From Escherichia coli (lineage in GTDB: Bacteria; Pseudomonadota; Gammaproteobacteria; Enterobacterales; Enterobacteriaceae), in the NCBI RefSeq assembly GCF_013315695.1, contig NZ_CP054353.1: 64,000 nt of DNA. One strand, given 5' to 3'. The position numbers and the translations under genes are program-made. Each line of letters begins with the position of its first letter. The first letter of the stretch is position 1. This document shows, piece after piece, positions 41,089 to 46,770 of this stretch. The notes under the pieces were generated by a model, which was given only the letters and a program-made list of their open reading frames with translations, was not told the origin of the DNA and did no database searches.

Positions 41089-41165
41089 CGGCGAGTAGCG
41101 CAGCTTGGTAGCGCAACTGGTTTGGGACCAGTGGGTCGGAGGTTCGAATCCTCTCTCGCCGACCA
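41089..41165 (+). tRNA. proM: tRNA-Pro (TGG)
   Basis: CGGCGAGTAGCGCAGCTTGGTAGCGCAACTGGTTTGGGACCAG...CGCCGACCA. Confidence 0.95.
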
Positions 41166-41171
41166 ATTTTG

Positions 41172-41196
41172 AACCCCGCTTCGGCGGGGTTTTTTG
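41172..41196 (+). terminator. Intrinsic terminator of the tRNA operon
   Basis: CCCCGC TTCG GCGGGG hairpin followed by a T-run. Confidence 0.85.
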
Positions 41197-41311
41197 TTTT
41201 CTGTGCATTTCGTCACTTTCCCTTCGCAATAAACGCCCGTAATAACGCATTGCGCCACGGTATGATTTCGCCCTTAACTTATTGAAGGATGACTTCAGGC
41301 AAGGAGCGACC

Positions 41312-42547
41312 ATGCTGCAACAGGTTCCAACGCGTGCTTTTCATGTGATGGCGAAACCGAGCGGTTCCGATTGTAATCTGAACTGTGACTACTGTTTTTA
41401 TCTCGAAAAACAATCCCTTTACCGCGAAAAGCCAGTCACGCATATGGACGATGACACGCTGGAAGCGTATGTCCGTCACTATATCGCTGCCAGCGAAACC
41501 CAAAACGAAGTGGCTTTTACCTGGCAGGGCGGCGAACCAACGTTACTCGGGCTGGATTTTTACCGCCGTGCCGTGGCGCTACAGGCGAAATATGGTGCTG
41601 ACAGGAAGATAAGTAACAGCTTCCAGACTAATGGCGTGCTGCTTGATGACGAATGGTGTGCATTTCTGGCAGAAAATCATTTTCTTGTTGGGTTATCGCT
41701 GGATGGTCCGGCTGAGATCCACAATCAATATCGCGTGACCAAAGGCGGCAGACCAACGCATAAGCTGGTGATGCGTGCCCTGACGCTCCTGCAAAAACAT
41801 CATGTCGACTATAACGTGCTGGTCTGCGTAAATCGCACCAGTGCGTTACAACCTTTGCAAATCTATGATTTTCTGTGTGATGCAGGTGTTGAGTTCATCC
41901 AGTTTATTCCTGTGGTCGAGCGCCTGGCTGATGAAACGGCTGCTCATGCTGGACTTAAGCTACATGCTCCCGGCGATATTCAGGGCGAACTGACGGAATG
42001 GTCGGTGTGCCCGCAAGAGTTCGGTGAGTTTCTGGTGGCGATTTTCGACCACTGGATTAGGCGCGACGTCGGTAAGATTTTCGTAATGAATATCGAATGG
42101 GCGTTCGCCAATTTTGTCGGCGCACCGGGCGCGGTTTGCCATCATCAGCCAACCTGTGGGCGCTCGGTGATTGTTGAGCACAACGGTGACGTTTACGCCT
42201 GCGATCACTATGTTTATCCGCAATATCGGCTGGGGAATATGCACCAGCAAACAATCGCAGAAATGGTAGATTCCCCGCAACAGCAGGCGTTTGGTGAAGA
42301 TAAATTTAAGCAGTTACCGGCGCAGTGTCGCAGTTGTAACGTGCTAAAAGCATGTTGGGGAGGCTGCCCGAAACACCGCTTTATGCTCGATGCCAGCGGC
42401 AAACCGGGGCTGAATTATTTGTGTGCCGGGTATCAGCGTTATTTCCGCCATCTACCGCCATATCTTAAAGCAATGGTTGATCTGCTGGCGCACGGTCGTC
42501 CGGCCAGCGACATTATGCAGGCGCATTTGCTGGTGGTGAAGAAGTAA
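41312..42547 (+). CDS. aslB: Anaerobic sulfatase-maturating enzyme homologue (radical SAM)
   Basis: ORF 41282-42547; start at the ATG giving MLQQVPTRAFHVMAKPSGSDCNLNCDYCFY (CxxxCxxC) with AAGGAG RBS; 411 aa. Confidence 0.93.
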   Translation: MLQQVPTRAFHVMAKPSGSDCNLNCDYCFYLEKQSLYREKPVTHMDDDTLEAYVRHYIAASETQNEVAFTWQGGEPTLLGLDFYRRAVALQAKYGADRKISNSFQTNGVLLDDEWCAFLAENHFLVGLSLDGPAEIHNQYRVTKGGRPTHKLVMRALTLLQKHHVDYNVLVCVNRTSALQPLQIYDFLCDAGVEFIQFIPVVERLADETAAHAGLKLHAPGDIQGELTEWSVCPQEFGEFLVAIFDHWIRRDVGKIFVMNIEWAFANFVGAPGAVCHHQPTCGRSVIVEHNGDVYACDHYVYPQYRLGNMHQQTIAEMVDSPQQQAFGEDKFKQLPAQCRSCNVLKACWGGCPKHRFMLDASGKPGLNYLCAGYQRYFRHLPPYLKAMVDLLAHGRPASDIMQAHLLVVKK

Positions 42548-42582
42548 AAAAGCGGCCATTTTGTTGCCGCCTGCGGTTGATT

Positions 42583-42612
42583 GCCGGATAAGGCGTTCAC
42601 GCCGCATCCGGC
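42583..42612. repeat. REP (repetitive extragenic palindromic) element
   Basis: GCCGGATAAGGCGTTCACGCCGCATCCGGC between convergent aslB and aslA. Confidence 0.85.
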
Positions 42613-42648
42613 AAGGTCAGTGTGGCCCGATGTAGCGATAGCGCCGGC

Positions 42649-44304
42649 TTAATCAGATTTAATCTGCGCGCGCGGCGGATATTTTTTCAGGATCTCCATA
42701 TACGCGTGCATTTCGGTCTGTAGCGGTACACCCATTGGGATATGGCGCACGCCGATAGAGTCGCTTTCCTGCGGATCGGTGTACAGGTTAAACACCGACG
42801 ATCCCGCCGTTTGCATTACTGTGCCGGTGAATCCACCCTGATACCCGCTCTGGGTATACGCGTACGGTTGCTGGATCAGGACGTGATACTTGAACTCATC
42901 CATACGCACAGCAGAAAGTTTACCGTTGAGGAAGTAGTGCTCGGCCTTACGGTTAGACTGACCATTTGTTCCCAGGAAGAAAGATGTCTGGTCCACACCA
43001 TCGATAAAGGTGGTTTTCGGTACTAAATTCGCTACTTTCGCCCCAGGATGCCCCGCCAGATCCAGCGCCGTAGGGAAGAGATCCGCCAGATCGACAATGC
43101 CGTCAGATTTACGCGGTTGGATCATGCCTTTCCAGTAAACGAAGGTTGGCACACGAACGCCGCCTTCCCATGTAGAACCTTTCGCACCGCGGAACGGCGT
43201 GCGACCGTGCGGCGGTACTTCCGCTTCCGGTCCGTTATCGGAGGTAAAGACGATTAGCGTGTTATCCAACTGACCATTTTTCTCCAGTGCTTTATACAGA
43301 TTGGCGAAGATATCGTTCATCTCCACCATGCAGTCGCCGTAAGAGGTGCGCGCCGGAGAGCTACCCGCATATTTCGCATTTGGGTAGTTATCGAAGTGAC
43401 AGCCGCGAGTGCCGTAGTAGAGGAAGAAAGGCTTATCGCTCTTCGCCATCTTGTCGAGGAACTTAACGCCATATTCCATCCAGCGTTGATCCAGGTCTTC
43501 CATATATTTCGGCGTAATGTCGGCAATGGCTTCCTGTTCACCGCCGCGCACGGCATGAACGTCATCTTTGCTGAATGGCAGTTTTTGGATGTATTCAGAA
43601 CGATCCGGGCTCAGGGCGACTTCCGGGTTGACGTGAACATCACGCCATTCGGTATACATATCGGATACCGAGTTAAAGCCGCGGAAATCATCAAAGCCAA
43701 CGTTCTGCGGCTGCGACTCTTTGTTTTCCCCCATATGCCATTTCCCGATGGCCTGAGTGACGTAGCCCTGATCGTGCAGCAACTGCGGCAGAGTGGTTAA
43801 CCCTTGCAGACCGCCCGGTTGCCCGTACATTGGCGGCATCAGAATGCCGTGGTGGATGGAGTATTGTCCGGTAAGAATCGTGGCGCGGGTTGGGGAAGAA
43901 CTCGGTTGAGAATACGCCGAAGTTAAAATCAGCCCCTGGCTGGCAACGGCGTCGATATCTGGTGTAGGGTTACCCACCGCCACGCCGCCGCCGTTAAAGC
44001 CAACATCCATCCAGCCCACATCATCCAGCAAGAAAACAACCACGTTCGGTTTCTTACCGGTTTTTTTCTCAAGTTCTGCCAGCTTCTGCTGGGTTTCTTT
44101 GTCTTGTGCAGGATGCTGCATCACCGGCATCATGTTGTCGGCAATAGTGGTCGCCGGTTTAACCAGATACTGGTTTGGGTGATCGTATCCGGCAAAGCCT
44201 TTGCGTGCGGTGGCGGTTGACGGGGTATCTGCTGCGTTGGCCATGAGTGGAAGAGCGGCGGCGACAGCTACAACAAGAAGTTTGGGTGAAAACGAAAATT
44301 CCAT
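42649..44304 (-). CDS. aslA: Arylsulfatase, Ser-type (SxPxR formylglycine motif), with signal peptide
   Basis: 551-aa ORF; SSPTR sulfatase signature; N-terminal signal peptide. Confidence 0.93.
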
Positions 44305-44712
44305 GCAAAATGCTCCGGTTTCATGTCGTCAAAATGTTGACGTAATTAAGCATTGATAATTGAGATCCCTCTCCCTGACAGGATGATTGCATAAATAATA
44401 GTGATGAAAATAAATTATTTATTTATCCAGAAAATGAATTGGAAAATCAGGAGAGCGTTTTCAATCCTACCTCTGGCGCAGGTGATATGTAAGGCGGTGA
44501 TGTTATATCGCGTTGATTATTGATGCTGTTTTTAGTTTTAACGGCAATTAATATATATGTTATTAATTGAATGAATTTTATTATTCATTATATATATGTG
44601 TAGAATCGTGCGCAGGAGAAATATTCACTCAGGAAGTTATTACTCAGGAAGCAAAGAGGATTACAGAATTATCTCATAACAAGTGTTAAGGGATGTTATT
44701 TCCCGGTTCTCT

Positions 44713-44722
44713 GTGGCATAAT
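44713..44722 (+). promoter_or_regulatory. Extended -10 element (TGg CATAAT) of the glmZ promoter
   Basis: TG at 44714-44715 and CATAAT at 44717-44722, 6 nt upstream of the glmZ 5-prime end; overlaps a degenerate sigma54-like TGGCA. Confidence 0.55.
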
Positions 44723-44728
44723 AAACGA

Positions 44729-44935
44729 GTAGATGCTCATTCCATCTCTTATGTTCGCCTTAGTGCCTCATAAACTCCGGAATGACGCAGAGCCGTTTAC
44801 GGTGCTTATCGTCCACTGACAGATGTCGCTTATGCCTCATCAGACACCATGGACACAACGTTGAGTGAAGCACCCACTTGTTGTCATACAGACCTGTTTT
44901 AACGCCTGCTCCGTAATAAGAGCAGGCGTTTTTTT
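44729..44935 (+). ncRNA. glmZ: Small regulatory RNA GlmZ
   Basis: GTAGATGCTCATTCCATCTCTTATGTTCGCCTTAGTGCCTCATAAACTCCGGAATGACGC... ending in the CGCCTGCTCCGTAATAAGAGCAGGCG T7 terminator; about 207 nt. Confidence 0.9.
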
Positions 44936-45533
44936 ATGACCGGATAAAGAACTGGTTACGTCGCTCCTGGGTCATCGGTTGCGCGTTTAACACTCTTACA
45001 AGAGAGCCTACCGTGACGATGGGAAGAAACGGATTCTCTTCTATTCCGCATAGATCGCGCCCGCAACGAGCAGCGGTATCTTCAACCAGCTCTTCTAACT
45101 CGACTGCGTCGCTCACCAAATCCAGATCATCGTCCAGTATATCATCGGCTTTCAGTGGCAGTGGGTAATCGATATAGCCGTTTCCTTGCAAGGTATCCCA
45201 CACCGCACGAATCACCCATGTATCTACGGTGTAGGTGTCAAATTCGCGGGCGAACTGGCAAATGGAGCGTCCCCGACGTTTATCTGCCATGATTCGGTAC
45301 TTCTTGAGGATCTTGATTTTTTCCTGCTTCGCCGCAGCTATCAGATATCCAATAAAAAGTGTTAACCAGAAGATGAATGTATTGCCCGTACGTACAAAGG
45401 AAATAATCAACCAACTTACGCCAGCCAGAGCGGCACATATCAACAAGATTAAAAAGAGCGTTGCCCGAAAAGGAGTAATTTCATGCGATGGCAAGCGGAA
45501 AAGATAGCGGGACGGCGTGCGCAATTTTGACAT
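44934..45533 (-). CDS. Hypothetical two-TM membrane protein with acidic C-terminal domain (199 aa), function unknown
   Basis: ORF with ATG start at 45533; two hydrophobic helices (about residues 24-46 and 52-68); weak RBS; stop overlaps the glmZ terminator T-run; start lies 6 nt past the hemY terminator. Confidence 0.45.
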   Translation of the reverse strand: MSKLRTPSRYLFRLPSHEITPFRATLFLILLICAALAGVSWLIISFVRTGNTFIFWLTLFIGYLIAAAKQEKIKILKKYRIMADKRRGRSICQFAREFDTYTVDTWVIRAVWDTLQGNGYIDYPLPLKADDILDDDLDLVSDAVELEELVEDTAARCGRDLCGIEENPFLPIVTVGSLVRVLNAQPMTQERRNQFFIRS

Positions 45534-45538
45534 CCTGG

Positions 45539-45573
45539 TAAAAAAATATCGCCTCTGAACGAGGCGATATAGA
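45539..45573 (-). terminator. Intrinsic terminator of the hemCDXY operon
   Basis: ATATCGCCTC / GAGGCGATAT hairpin followed on the minus strand by a 7-T run. Confidence 0.8.
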
Positions 45574-46770
45574 TTACTGTGACGGGTTATTCTGTAAGGT
45601 CAGCATCAAACCGTCGCGGCGCATCGCTGCAGCTTCTTCTGGTTTGTGCAGTCTGTCCAGCGCGTCGGCAAGCCATGCGTAATCGTAGGCGTCCGGACGT
45701 TGTTTCAGCGCCGCGCGGAAGGCGAGCGATGCTTCCTGCCATTCGCCGTGCTTCATCAGCGACTGACCCAGTGTGCTCCACAACAACGGGCGATCGCCCA
45801 CGTTTTTGATCTGTTGGCGCAGCACTTTTTCCAGCTGTTCCGGGTTATTGGTTTTCAGACGCGGGATCGGCAGCAGCAGGCGATCGTCATACTGGCGTTT
45901 CAGGCCGTCGATGATAATTTGCTGGGCGGTGTCATGGTCATCACACTCAATAAGGTGTTCCGCCATTGCCACCTGTAACGCCACCTGATGACGCGTTTTC
46001 CGGCTTTGGTTTTTCCACCAGTTACGCAAACCTTCGCTACCGTTATCGGCACGCGCCTGATCCATCAGGCCAATCCATGCCTGTTGTTCCAGCATTGCAC
46101 GATGTTCTTCATCGCCAACGTGGGCTTTCGCCATTGATGGGATGATATCCAGCAGCGAACTCCATGCACCAGTGCGGATATACGCCTGTTCCGCCAGACG
46201 TAATACTTCCGGATGGCGTGGCGTAACTTCCAGCAGCTTATCCACGCCGTGGCGTGCAGCATGGTTTTCATTACGGGCCAGTTGCAGACGTACACGGGTG
46301 ATTTCTACCGGAATTGTGTCGTTGCCGGCCAGCTCCGCTGCGCGTTCCAGATGTTGGTTGGCGCGTGCTTCATCACCGCGTTGTTGCGCGGCTTCGGCAG
46401 CCAGCAGATAGTTCACCACCGGTTGTTCAGCGTGATCGGCATTTTTCGCCATCAGCTTTTCAACTTGCTGATAATCGCCTTCCGCTAGTTTCAGCAGCGC
46501 CTGTTCGGTCTGCTTACGGGCACGGCGACGCTTACGTCCGACAAACCACCCACGGGTGTGTGCGCCTGTGCGGAAGATCCGCCGCAGTAGCCACTCAATG
46601 GCAAACAGCACTACCATCGCCAGAATCAAAATAATCGCCAGGCCAGTGACGCTGGTTTCGATATTGTAGTTGTCGGTCTGAATCAATACGTACCCCTGAT
46701 GACCGGCAATCATCGGGCCAACCACGATCCCCGCAATCAGCAAAACAAAGAGCAATAACACTTTTAGCAT
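45574..46770 (-). CDS. hemY: HemY (TPR-containing membrane protein of the hem operon)
   Basis: 398-aa ORF MLKVLLLFVLLIAGIVVGPMIAGHQGYVLIQTDNYNIE... Confidence 0.95.
   Translation of the reverse strand: MLKVLLLFVLLIAGIVVGPMIAGHQGYVLIQTDNYNIETSVTGLAIILILAMVVLFAIEWLLRRIFRTGAHTRGWFVGRKRRRARKQTEQALLKLAEGDYQQVEKLMAKNADHAEQPVVNYLLAAEAAQQRGDEARANQHLERAAELAGNDTIPVEITRVRLQLARNENHAARHGVDKLLEVTPRHPEVLRLAEQAYIRTGAWSSLLDIIPSMAKAHVGDEEHRAMLEQQAWIGLMDQARADNGSEGLRNWWKNQSRKTRHQVALQVAMAEHLIECDDHDTAQQIIIDGLKRQYDDRLLLPIPRLKTNNPEQLEKVLRQQIKNVGDRPLLWSTLGQSLMKHGEWQEASLAFRAALKQRPDAYDYAWLADALDRLHKPEEAAAMRRDGLMLTLQNNPSQ

Follow-up and report, generated by a model that had tools for sequence, protein, structure and literature searches.

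The convergent genes aslB and aslA of Escherichia coli raise the question of whether a sulfatase is encoded here beside a maturase of its own, and of whether the AT-rich DNA upstream of aslA points to silencing by a nucleoid protein, as a sequence-only reading of the region had suggested. We examined the pair in a 64-kb stretch of DNA (64,000 nucleotides; hereafter the window), which is chromosomal and shares 100% identity with a blood isolate of E. coli. The region is very probably the E. coli asl locus functioning as modelled below, namely as a sulfatase gene paired with the gene of a maturase dedicated to it.

The asl locus and its counterpart in strain K-12

The locus is an already known and ordinary one: RefSeq gives the names aslB and aslA to exactly these ORFs, as the sequence-only reading had them, and the layout is that of strain K-12, in which aslB (b3800) and aslA (b3801) lie in the same context of thrP, argX-hisR-leuT-proM, aslB, aslA, glmZ, and hemY. 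The gene lengths are equal in the two strains and the motifs are the same, with 9 of 551 residues differing in AslA and 17 of 411 in AslB. At the codon level, aslA shows 81 synonymous and 9 non-synonymous differences from K-12, and aslB 54 and 17, respectively. Nucleotide identity to K-12 is lower in aslB (93.4%) and aslA (94.3%) than in thrP (98.1%) and in the tRNA-operon segment (99.0%), which comprises the tRNAs, the terminator, and the aslB upstream region. This strain also carries, unlike K-12, an insert of 556 bp in the glmZ–hemY interval, in which a hypothetical ORF lies; the 199-aa ORF beside glmZ had no match in Pfam, NCBIfam, PHROGs, or PADLOC.

AslB resembles anaerobic sulfatase-maturating enzymes

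The features of aslB are as follows.

41193–41311, plus strand: aslB upstream region, from the terminator of the proM tRNA operon to the aslB ATG
41312–42547, plus strand: aslB, 411 aa, anaerobic sulfatase-maturating enzyme (radical SAM + SPASM); RefSeq name aslB
41372–41395, plus strand: codons of the radical-SAM [4Fe-4S] motif C21-x3-C25-x2-C28, aligned with C15/C19/C22 of anSMEcpe
42137–42424, plus strand: codons of the eight SPASM/auxiliary-cluster Cys residues, C276, C282, C297, C339, C342, C348, C352, and C371

The tRNA-Pro gene ends at 41165 and is followed by a terminator hairpin (41171–41192), downstream of which lies the presumed aslB promoter region, the position of the promoter being inferred. 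In the ORF reading, aslB extends from the ATG at 41312 to the stop at 42547, with a ribosome-binding site AAGGAG (41301–41306) 5 bases upstream of the ATG.

The assignment of aslB as a radical-SAM maturase, made earlier from the CxxxCxxC motif (residues 21–28, CNLNCDYC), is borne out by profile and structural comparisons. AslB matches the Pfam families PF04055 and PF13186 (SPASM) and scores 517.1 bits against the equivalog TIGR03942, above its curated cut-off of 349.45, while falling under the cut-offs of two narrower PRK models (462.6 versus 484, and 249.4 versus 441). Comparison with a characterised anaerobic sulfatase-maturating enzyme, which the sequence-only reading had proposed, was made by aligning AslB with anSMEcpe from Clostridium perfringens (PDB entries 4K36–4K39; for 4K36, E = 1.2e-63 and 34.9% identity over 355 aligned residues). 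Each of the 11 cluster Cys residues of anSMEcpe (3 + 8) is conserved in AslB, the eight auxiliary ones pairing one-to-one with C255, C261, C276, C317, C320, C326, C330, and C348. In alignment to the 4K36 ligands they form the two sets C276/282/297/352 and C339/342/348/371, and the two proteins also share a Cys-Asp dipeptide at the third auxiliary Cys (C297-D298). AslB differs from anSMEcpe in a 20-residue insertion around residues 212–232, and whereas the natural substrate of anSMEcpe is a Cys-type sulfatase, the neighbour of AslB is of the Ser-type. Judged by these residues, AslB would be a radical-SAM/SPASM enzyme of the cytoplasm that carries three [4Fe-4S] clusters. Indirect support for its action as a sulfatase maturase comes from the higher activity of human sulfatases in E. 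coli that overexpresses AslB (cited in PMC11215262).

AslA is a Ser-type sulfatase with a predicted Sec signal peptide

The features of aslA, which lies on the opposite strand, are as follows.

42649–44304, minus strand: aslA, 551 aa, precursor of a Ser-type formylglycine-dependent (S1) sulfatase; RefSeq name aslA
43885–43899, minus strand: codons of S136-S-P-T-R140, with S136 as the predicted formylglycine precursor
44233–44304, minus strand: codons 1–24, predicted Sec signal peptide with cleavage after A-N-A

AslA matches PF00884 over nearly the entire profile (positions 1–300 of 301; E = 4e-71; 240 bits, cut-off 25), but reaches only 106 bits against the NCBIfam arylsulfatase equivalog PRK13759, the cut-off of which is 481. 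The serine form of the sulfatase motif noted in the sequence-only reading (SSPTR) was located at residues 136–140, with S136 lying over the catalytic Cys of the Pseudoalteromonas sp. sulfatase PsFucS1 (PDB entry 7AJ0) and over position 69 of human arylsulfatase A (ARSA). In the alignment, AslA keeps every catalytic residue of ARSA: D94, D95, S136, R140, and K188 correspond to D29, D30, C69, R73, and K123, and H190, H303, D356, N357, and K375 to H125, H229, D281, N282, and K302. In ARSA, D29, D30, R73, K123, H125, H229, D281, N282, and K302 are the metal-binding and catalytic residues. A second SSPAR at residues 315–319 falls outside the active-site alignment and was dismissed as a coincidence.

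Among the solved structures compared, PsFucS1, a member of SulfAtlas subfamily S1_13, is the best relative of AslA (E = 7.7e-101, 39.1% identity). The two align over AslA residues 52 to 544 with identical active-site residues, except that PsFucS1 is Cys-type (C-T-S-S-R) and AslA Ser-type (S-S-P-T-R). PsFucS1 is Ca-dependent and frees sulfate from fucoidan oligosaccharides (PMC8484680). Because the identity is only 39%, assigning this substrate to AslA is not justified.

The structural match to 7AJ0 begins only past the leader, which contains a single Lys, a hydrophobic core of 13 residues (mean Kyte-Doolittle value, 2.7), and the cleavage motif A-N-A followed by AD. The signal peptide claimed by the sequence-only reading is recognisable as a Sec-type leader by inspection and hydrophobicity profile; inspection of the leader revealed neither a twin-arginine motif nor a lipobox. 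The Salmonella protein of the same name, STM0084, which is a Tat substrate and an acid-inducible sulfatase, was set aside as a guide to regulation, as neither its locus nor its export route is that of AslA.

From these features, AslB may convert Ser136 of the still unfolded AslA precursor to Cα-formylglycine by oxidising its side chain, after which AslA would leave the cytoplasm via the Sec route by means of its 24-residue leader and act in the periplasm as a metal-dependent S1 sulfatase on a sulfate ester.

Conservation of the sulfatase–maturase pair

The proposed scheme has a counterpart in Klebsiella pneumoniae, where AtsA, a periplasmic Ser-type S1 sulfatase, is encoded beside the radical-SAM/SPASM maturase AtsB; AtsB is required for the conversion of Ser to formylglycine in AtsA before export, and atsB and atsA are co-transcribed. 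In contrast, the convergent genes aslB and aslA are controlled separately, and the closest solved relative of AslA is an S1_13 enzyme rather than an AtsA-type aryl-sulfatase.

The AslA family, with identities of 60–84%, extends from Enterobacteriaceae to Bacteroidota and Myxococcales. The residue at the formylglycine position is Ser in 33 and Cys in 84 of the 120 closest database homologues of AslA. An adjacent AslB orthologue was found in five of the six Ser-type members examined. Three of these, from Uliginosibacterium, a deltaproteobacterium, and a metagenome contig, have sulfatases 75–76% identical to AslA and maturases 61–63% identical to AslB, the maturase gene lying immediately 3' of the sulfatase gene in convergent orientation across a gap of 46–69 nt with a hairpin. 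In a fourth Ser-type homologue the maturase gene is co-directional and overlapping, while no maturase gene lies within 4 kb of the homologue P0027. Nearby maturases occur in two of five Cys-type homologues, and the Ser form is thus associated with a nearby maturase as a trend only in this small sample. The recurrence of the convergent pair in three or more distant lineages, each with orthologues of both genes, argues for co-function.

A REP element in the convergent gap

Two features occupy the space between the genes.

42548–42648, no strand assigned: intergenic gap of 101 bp separating the two convergent stop codons of aslB and aslA
42581–42614, no strand assigned: single REP with 16-nt arms (88% complementary) and a 2-nt loop

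The convergent orientation with a REP between the genes, as the sequence-only reading had described it, was recovered in full. The element resembles the REP/BIME repeats of Enterobacteriaceae, being an imperfect palindrome of ~34 nt that contains GCCGGATAAGGCG...CGCCGCATCCGGC and lying outside genes, here between convergent ones. No further REP copy is present in the 64-kb window, so that family membership had to come from genome-wide matches. Of 5426 E. coli genomes, 5425 each contain at least 40 sites that match the palindrome, which is therefore a genuine REP; it also gave a weak hit, below the threshold, to naRNA4, an Rfam family derived from REPs. The arrangement differs from that of K-12, which has two REPs in a 158-bp gap at the same site. 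The gap folds more stably than shuffled sequences on both strands (z = −2.4 and −2.3), and the most likely role of the hairpin between the stops is to end or stabilise the transcripts from both sides.

The aslA–glmZ spacer and its inverted repeat

Because the genes are convergent, aslA and aslB would be transcribed from separate promoters, that of aslA within the spacer that it shares with glmZ.

44305–44728, no strand assigned: divergent spacer between aslA and glmZ (424 bp, 33.7% GC), with the aslA 5' leader and the promoters of aslA (unmapped) and glmZ
44570–44589, no strand assigned: inverted repeat AATGAAT-N6-ATTCATT, probably fortuitous, overlapping a weak minus-strand −10-like TAAAAT
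44660–44689, minus strand: predicted aslA sigma-70 promoter TTAACA-18-TGTAAT, a computational assignment (PMC3946193, Table 1) located here by eye
44729–44935, plus strand: glmZ small RNA gene (RF00083), with a terminator hairpin at 44901–44930 and a −10 element CATAAT at 44717–44722

The spacer is as AT-rich as the sequence-only reading had noted: the 300-bp stretch with the lowest GC content of the whole window lies in it (30.3%, against a window average of 52.4%). It was found in 5422 of 5426 genomes, and its K-12 counterpart is also 424 bp long (95.3% identity). It is indeed the upstream region of aslA, but does not belong to aslA alone, since its other end holds the sigma-70 promoter of glmZ. 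The glmZ gene beside aslA, which that reading had left out, scores 218.4 bits against RF00083 (gathering score 60; model positions 1–214) and is 100% identical to K-12 glmZ. A search for a hidden gene in the spacer returned only ORFs of 23–51 aa, the two longest of which extend into it out of aslA; at E ≤ 1, glmZ and the REP were the sole Rfam hits.

The inverted repeat at 44570–44589, which had been read as AATGAA-N8-TTCATT and as a sign of nucleoid-protein silencing, does exist, but has 7 + 7 arms around a 6-nt loop. It might instead be an operator for a dimeric transcription factor acting on aslA or glmZ, a reading that we regard as very unlikely. The repeat is a perfect palindrome unique in the 64-kb window, it overlaps a second, weak minus-strand promoter-like match (44602–44575) with the −10 element inside its loop, and the spacer holds 10 repeats with 6-nt arms against 2.0 in shuffles, the counts being nested. 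However, the spacer contains 28 short inverted repeats, this one included, and of composition-matched shuffles of the 424 bp, 79% have one or more repeats with 6-nt arms and 34% one or more with 7-nt arms. Moreover, the spacer is at its most variable around this repeat, in which K-12 (ATTCATA) and ST131 (AATGACT) each pair at 6 of 7 arm positions with one uncompensated change. As for glmZ, it has a single sigma-70 promoter in E. coli for which sequence 5' of −40 is dispensable, and GlrR did not bind a glmZ fragment from −424 to +32 (PMC3045617); control of the spacer by GlrR/sigma-54/IHF is excluded for E. coli by the same study. The repeat is probably fortuitous, and its chance-level frequency and uncompensated changes take away its value as a sign of silencing.

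Silencing by a nucleoid protein nonetheless remains a plausible reading of the aslA upstream region, because the spacer is AT-rich and bound by H-NS in K-12, rather than because of the inverted repeat. The binding was detected in the K-12 aslA–glmZ spacer by in vitro genomic SELEX (PMC3946193). Matches to the H-NS nucleation motif TCGATAAATT with up to two mismatches are not enriched in the window (58 versus 55.6 expected), and only one falls in the spacer. The published expression effect of hns is one on aslB: the gene is up 12.9-fold in an hns mutant, an indirect effect dependent on GadE/RcsB, and RcsB/GadE bind directly at the K-12 aslB promoter region (PMC2984483). In the model that we favour, aslA would be transcribed from the AT-rich spacer, back-to-back with the constitutive glmZ promoter, and H-NS on the spacer would keep it largely silent under laboratory conditions; aslB may be off too, unless H-NS is relieved and GadE/RcsB act.

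Loss of aslA and retention of aslB in E. coli

Gene presence was counted over 5426 complete E. coli genomes. Full-length aslB occurs in 5424 and full-length aslA in 3693, aslA being largely deleted, with 92% of the gene missing, in ~1732 genomes (~32%). A single shared 1.5-kb deletion accounts for the loss. Of six deletion carriers sampled, five have an intact aslB, in four different alleles with all cluster Cys residues kept; a frameshifted aslB in strain H5, considered as a general result of aslA loss, was rejected as such, the allele being found in just two genomes.

That aslB is kept where aslA is deleted suggests that AslB does not serve AslA solely. AslB could accordingly be a general or differently targeted maturase, acting for example on the second Ser-type sulfatase, YdeN, or on an acid-stress-related substrate, with its adjacency to aslA historical, which we consider possible but rather unlikely. 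Besides the presence counts and the intact alleles, this reading draws on the membership of aslB in the H-NS/GadE/RcsB acid-resistance regulon, where its loss in an hns background slightly lowers acid survival (38.6% versus 51.7%; PMC2984483), and on human Cys-type sulfatases reported to be activated by AslB: AslB overexpression is reported to give up to 4.6-fold higher recombinant human sulfatase activity in E. coli (Almeciga-Diaz 2017, cited in PMC11215262). Against it stands the convergent pair as a conserved unit in at least three distant lineages. Furthermore, dedicated and general roles of AslB are not mutually exclusive, and the aslB alleles of the deletion carriers may predate the recombinational spread of the deletion, so that their being intact says little about ongoing selection.

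The same deletion, the position of aslA behind an H-NS-bound spacer (PMC3946193), and the RefSeq label of both K-12 products, which remain 'putative' (for AslA, 'putative sulfatase'), might be taken to mean that aslA is a cryptic, decaying gene without current function and the pair a relic. We regard this as very unlikely: the aslA genes that remain are full length and keep all catalytic residues, the differences of aslA from K-12 are 9:1 synonymous to non-synonymous, and its family is conserved across phyla. Links to invasion have also been reported: aslA is said to contribute when E. coli K1 invades brain endothelium (Hoffman 2000, cited in PMC11879602), and AslA cosegregated with epithelial-cell invasiveness in IBD-associated E. 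coli isolates (PMC11879602). The two-gene module with its own maturase is the preferred reading.

As a discovery the locus means little: its annotation is present in all E. coli genomes, and how Ser-type sulfatases and their anaerobic maturases work chemically is textbook knowledge. Its population pattern bears on other work: virulence surveys that score the presence or absence of aslA probably record mostly one ancestral deletion rather than gene acquisition, and the roughly one-third of E. coli that keep aslB but lack aslA provide a natural experiment on other roles of the maturase. We tentatively propose, as an idea short of being probable, that AslB has a function independent of AslA and, relatedly, that the AslA family has one strongly conserved substrate and the Ser switch forms a mobile module with the convergent maturase. 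The cross-phylum conservation of the family suggests a specific and common substrate. If the proposal is true, the AslA family would be sulfatases with a single strongly conserved substrate, and the Cys-to-Ser switch would travel together with its convergent maturase as a mobile two-gene module.

Organization of the asl locus

The 5-kb stretch around the asl gene pair matches the chromosome of an E. coli isolate from a human blood culture with 100% identity, and has a partial or fuller match in 5425 of the 5426 complete E. coli genomes. The sequence-only reading had correctly recognized the known asl locus. RefSeq names aslB and aslA here (gene order: thrP, tRNA-Arg/His/Leu/Pro, aslB, aslA, hypothetical protein, hemY, and hemX), and K-12 MG1655 has an identical order; its annotation adds glmZ between aslA and hemY. 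The features are as follows.

41312–42547, plus strand: aslB, radical-SAM maturase gene, 411 aa, with ribosome-binding site AAGGAG
42581–42614: REP, imperfect palindrome of 16+16 nt, core of the 101-bp gap
42649–44304, minus strand: aslA, sulfatase gene, 551 aa
44717–44722: -10 element (CATAAT) of the glmZ sigma-70 promoter
44729–44935, plus strand: glmZ small RNA (Rfam RF00083, 218 bits), divergent from aslA
44901–44930: glmZ terminator
44934–45533, minus strand: strain-variable hypothetical ORF, 199 aa, annotated in RefSeq as its final 118 aa only

In comparison with K-12 over 41312–46770, the identities of aslB, aslA, and hemY are 93.4%, 94.3%, and 95.2%, respectively; thrP (98.1%) and the tRNA-operon segment (tRNAs, terminator, and aslB upstream region; 99.0%) are far closer, and glmZ, amid the diverged aslA and hemY, is 100% identical. 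Alleles at least 99% identical to those of the window strain occur in 12 of 5426 genomes for aslA and in 5 of 5426 for aslB. A 556-bp insert at 44936–45573, between glmZ and hemY, is without counterpart in K-12. The hypothetical ORF inside this insert ends on the T-run of the glmZ terminator, which its stop codon overlaps. Its product is predicted to have two transmembrane helices and has an acidic domain at the C-terminus. The ORF, absent from K-12, occurs as two haplotypes in 690 of 5426 genomes (the ST131 version has 196 aa and is 84% identical), and gave no match in Pfam, NCBIfam, PHROG, or PADLOC.

AslA and its homologues

AslA matches PF00884 (E=4e-71), and its closest solved structure is PsFucS1 from Pseudoalteromonas sp. 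(PDB ID: 7AJ0; E=8e-101; 39% identity). The serine-form SxPxR motif read from the sequence is borne out: SSPTR occupies residues 136–140 (43885–43899), and in HMMER alignments Ser136 coincides with the catalytic Cys of PsFucS1 and with residue 69 of human arylsulfatase A (ARSA). Asp94, Asp95, Arg140, Lys188, His190, His303, Asp356, Asn357, and Lys375 likewise align with the metal-binding and catalytic residues of ARSA. PsFucS1 was the first enzyme of SulfAtlas subfamily S1_13 to be characterised, is Ca-dependent, and acts on fucoidan oligosaccharides (PMC8484680); its substrate is not transferable to AslA at 39% identity. A second signature-like string, S-S-P-A-R at residues 315–319 (43348–43362, minus strand), lies outside the active-site alignment and is probably a coincidence. 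The N-terminus, with one Lys, a 13-residue hydrophobic core, and A-N-A ahead of the cut, looks like a Sec leader by hydrophobicity profile and inspection, in agreement with the signal peptide proposed earlier; neither a twin arginine nor a lipobox Cys was seen in the leader on inspection.

In a database search, homologues of AslA with 60–84% identity turned up in Salmonella, Citrobacter, Kluyvera, beta-, delta-, gamma-, and alpha-proteobacteria, Bacteroidota, Bdellovibrio, and Myxococcales, an unusually tight conservation across several phyla. The best 120 homologues share the motif SAYSQPS[S/C]SPTRATI[L/M]TGQY, an otherwise invariant stretch of 20 residues in which Ser and Cys alternate at the formylglycine position (Ser in 33, Cys in 84). 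The minority Ser form is found mostly in the closest relatives, consistent with a single-residue switch, perhaps in the direction from Cys to Ser.

AslB and its pairing with AslA

AslB matches the Radical_SAM and SPASM domains, with CNLNCDYC at residues 21–28 as the CxxxCxxC motif noted before, and scores 517 bits (cut-off, 349) on the NCBIfam equivalog TIGR03942 'anaerobic sulfatase maturase'. In the comparison with characterised maturases that had been proposed, the best solved relative was the Clostridium perfringens anSME (PDB ID: 4K36; E=1e-63; 34.9% identity), and all 11 cysteines ligating its three [4Fe-4S] clusters align with AslB cysteines (21/25/28, 276/282/297/352, and 339/342/348/371). 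A twelfth, non-cluster Cys is residue 233 (42008–42010, plus strand), inside an insertion relative to the C. perfringens enzyme; it is Arg in K-12 and Cys in some other E. coli alleles. Codon differences from K-12 (54 synonymous and 17 non-synonymous in aslB; 81 and 9 in aslA) indicate purifying selection on both genes.

As described earlier, the two genes converge on a gap (42548–42648) with a REP between them. The palindrome is a genuine REP, since the 40-nt gap element occurs in at least 40 places per genome in 5425 genomes and gives a sub-threshold match to the REP-derived Rfam family naRNA4. REP content at the gap is polymorphic: the count is one here and two (a BIME) in K-12 (2695–2852 of its locus, L002), and strains with the aslA deletion keep just the first REP.

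Ser-type members from Uliginosibacterium, a deltaproteobacterium, and a metagenome contig have a Radical_SAM/SPASM gene directly downstream and convergent as in E. coli, across gaps of 46–69 nt with hairpins; these neighbours are full-length AslB orthologues (61–63% identity). In a fourth Ser-type member the maturase is co-directional and overlapping, and no maturase lies within 4 kb of a fifth. Among five Cys-type members examined, two adjoin a maturase and three do not; one of the two, in Chitiniphilus, has an FGE gene next to it besides the radical-SAM maturase. The members of both types taken together are too few for any statistical claim on Ser versus Cys association. Because convergent pairing of orthologues recurs, there is good evidence from gene order that aslA and aslB work together, though not as an operon; from this recurrence, the E. 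coli REP also seems to stand where a generic two-way terminator hairpin would be.

The biochemistry of anSMEs is established, and together with the strong homology and conserved synteny found here it forms the basis of a putative mechanism: AslB would turn Ser136 into formylglycine by oxidation while the AslA precursor is still unfolded, Sec would then export AslA, and the periplasmic enzyme would hydrolyse sulfate esters. The action of AslB on AslA and the substrate are inferred, as is aslA silencing.

The spacer between aslA and glmZ

The spacer (44305–44728; 424 bp, 33.7% GC) has at its core the lowest-GC 300-bp stretch of the window (30.3% versus 52.4%). The AT-richness ascribed to the aslA upstream region therefore stands, but the region is not that of aslA only: its far end is the glmZ promoter, which had been overlooked. 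The inverted repeat at 44570–44589, described as AATGAA-N8-TTCATT, exists and in fact reads AATGAAT-N6-ATTCATT; it does not support silencing. At least one repeat with 6-nt arms arose in 79% of dinucleotide-preserving spacer shuffles, and at least one with 7-nt arms in 34% (loops of 3–12 nt); the repeat is among 28 short ones counted in the region, sits where the otherwise well-conserved spacer varies most, and has one pair broken without compensation in K-12 (right arm, ATTCATA) and in ST131 (left arm, AATGACT). The H-NS nucleation motif showed no enrichment.

Nucleoid-protein silencing at the asl locus is nevertheless plausible and partly published, because genomic SELEX lists the spacer with an H-NS binding site (PMC3946193), and aslB rises 12.9-fold in an hns mutant, an effect lost without GadE or RcsB, both of which bind directly to the aslB promoter (PMC2984483). 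Direct evidence for de-repression of aslA was not found. The predicted aslA promoter, TTAACA-18-TGTAAT (PMC3946193), is placed at 44689–44660 (minus strand). E. coli glmZ has a single constitutive sigma-70 promoter, with sequence upstream of -40 dispensable, and GlrR does not bind its -424 to +32 fragment (PMC3045617); glmZ thus does not need most of the AT-rich spacer, which is free for aslA control.

Loss of aslA in the population

The spacer and glmZ are present in 5422 of 5426 genomes and aslB is full length in 5424, whereas only 3693 have a full-length aslA. About 1732 (32%) keep only its first 139 nt, the lost part corresponding to 42649–44165. One REP marks the boundary of the deletion: in all six sampled carriers the first REP of a K-12-type BIME runs straight into aslA codon 46, with GCAGCGTTCTGT joined to GGATACTGG. 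That their junctions are identical points to a single ancestral deletion. Variable aslA presence was already implicit in virulence-gene surveys (e.g., PMC5180367). Five of the six carriers have an intact aslB; their four alleles are separated by up to 29 synonymous and 12 non-synonymous codon differences, with every cluster cysteine retained. The sixth has a frameshifted allele shared by only two genomes. The retention of aslB without aslA suggests that this maturase may have a role beyond AslA.
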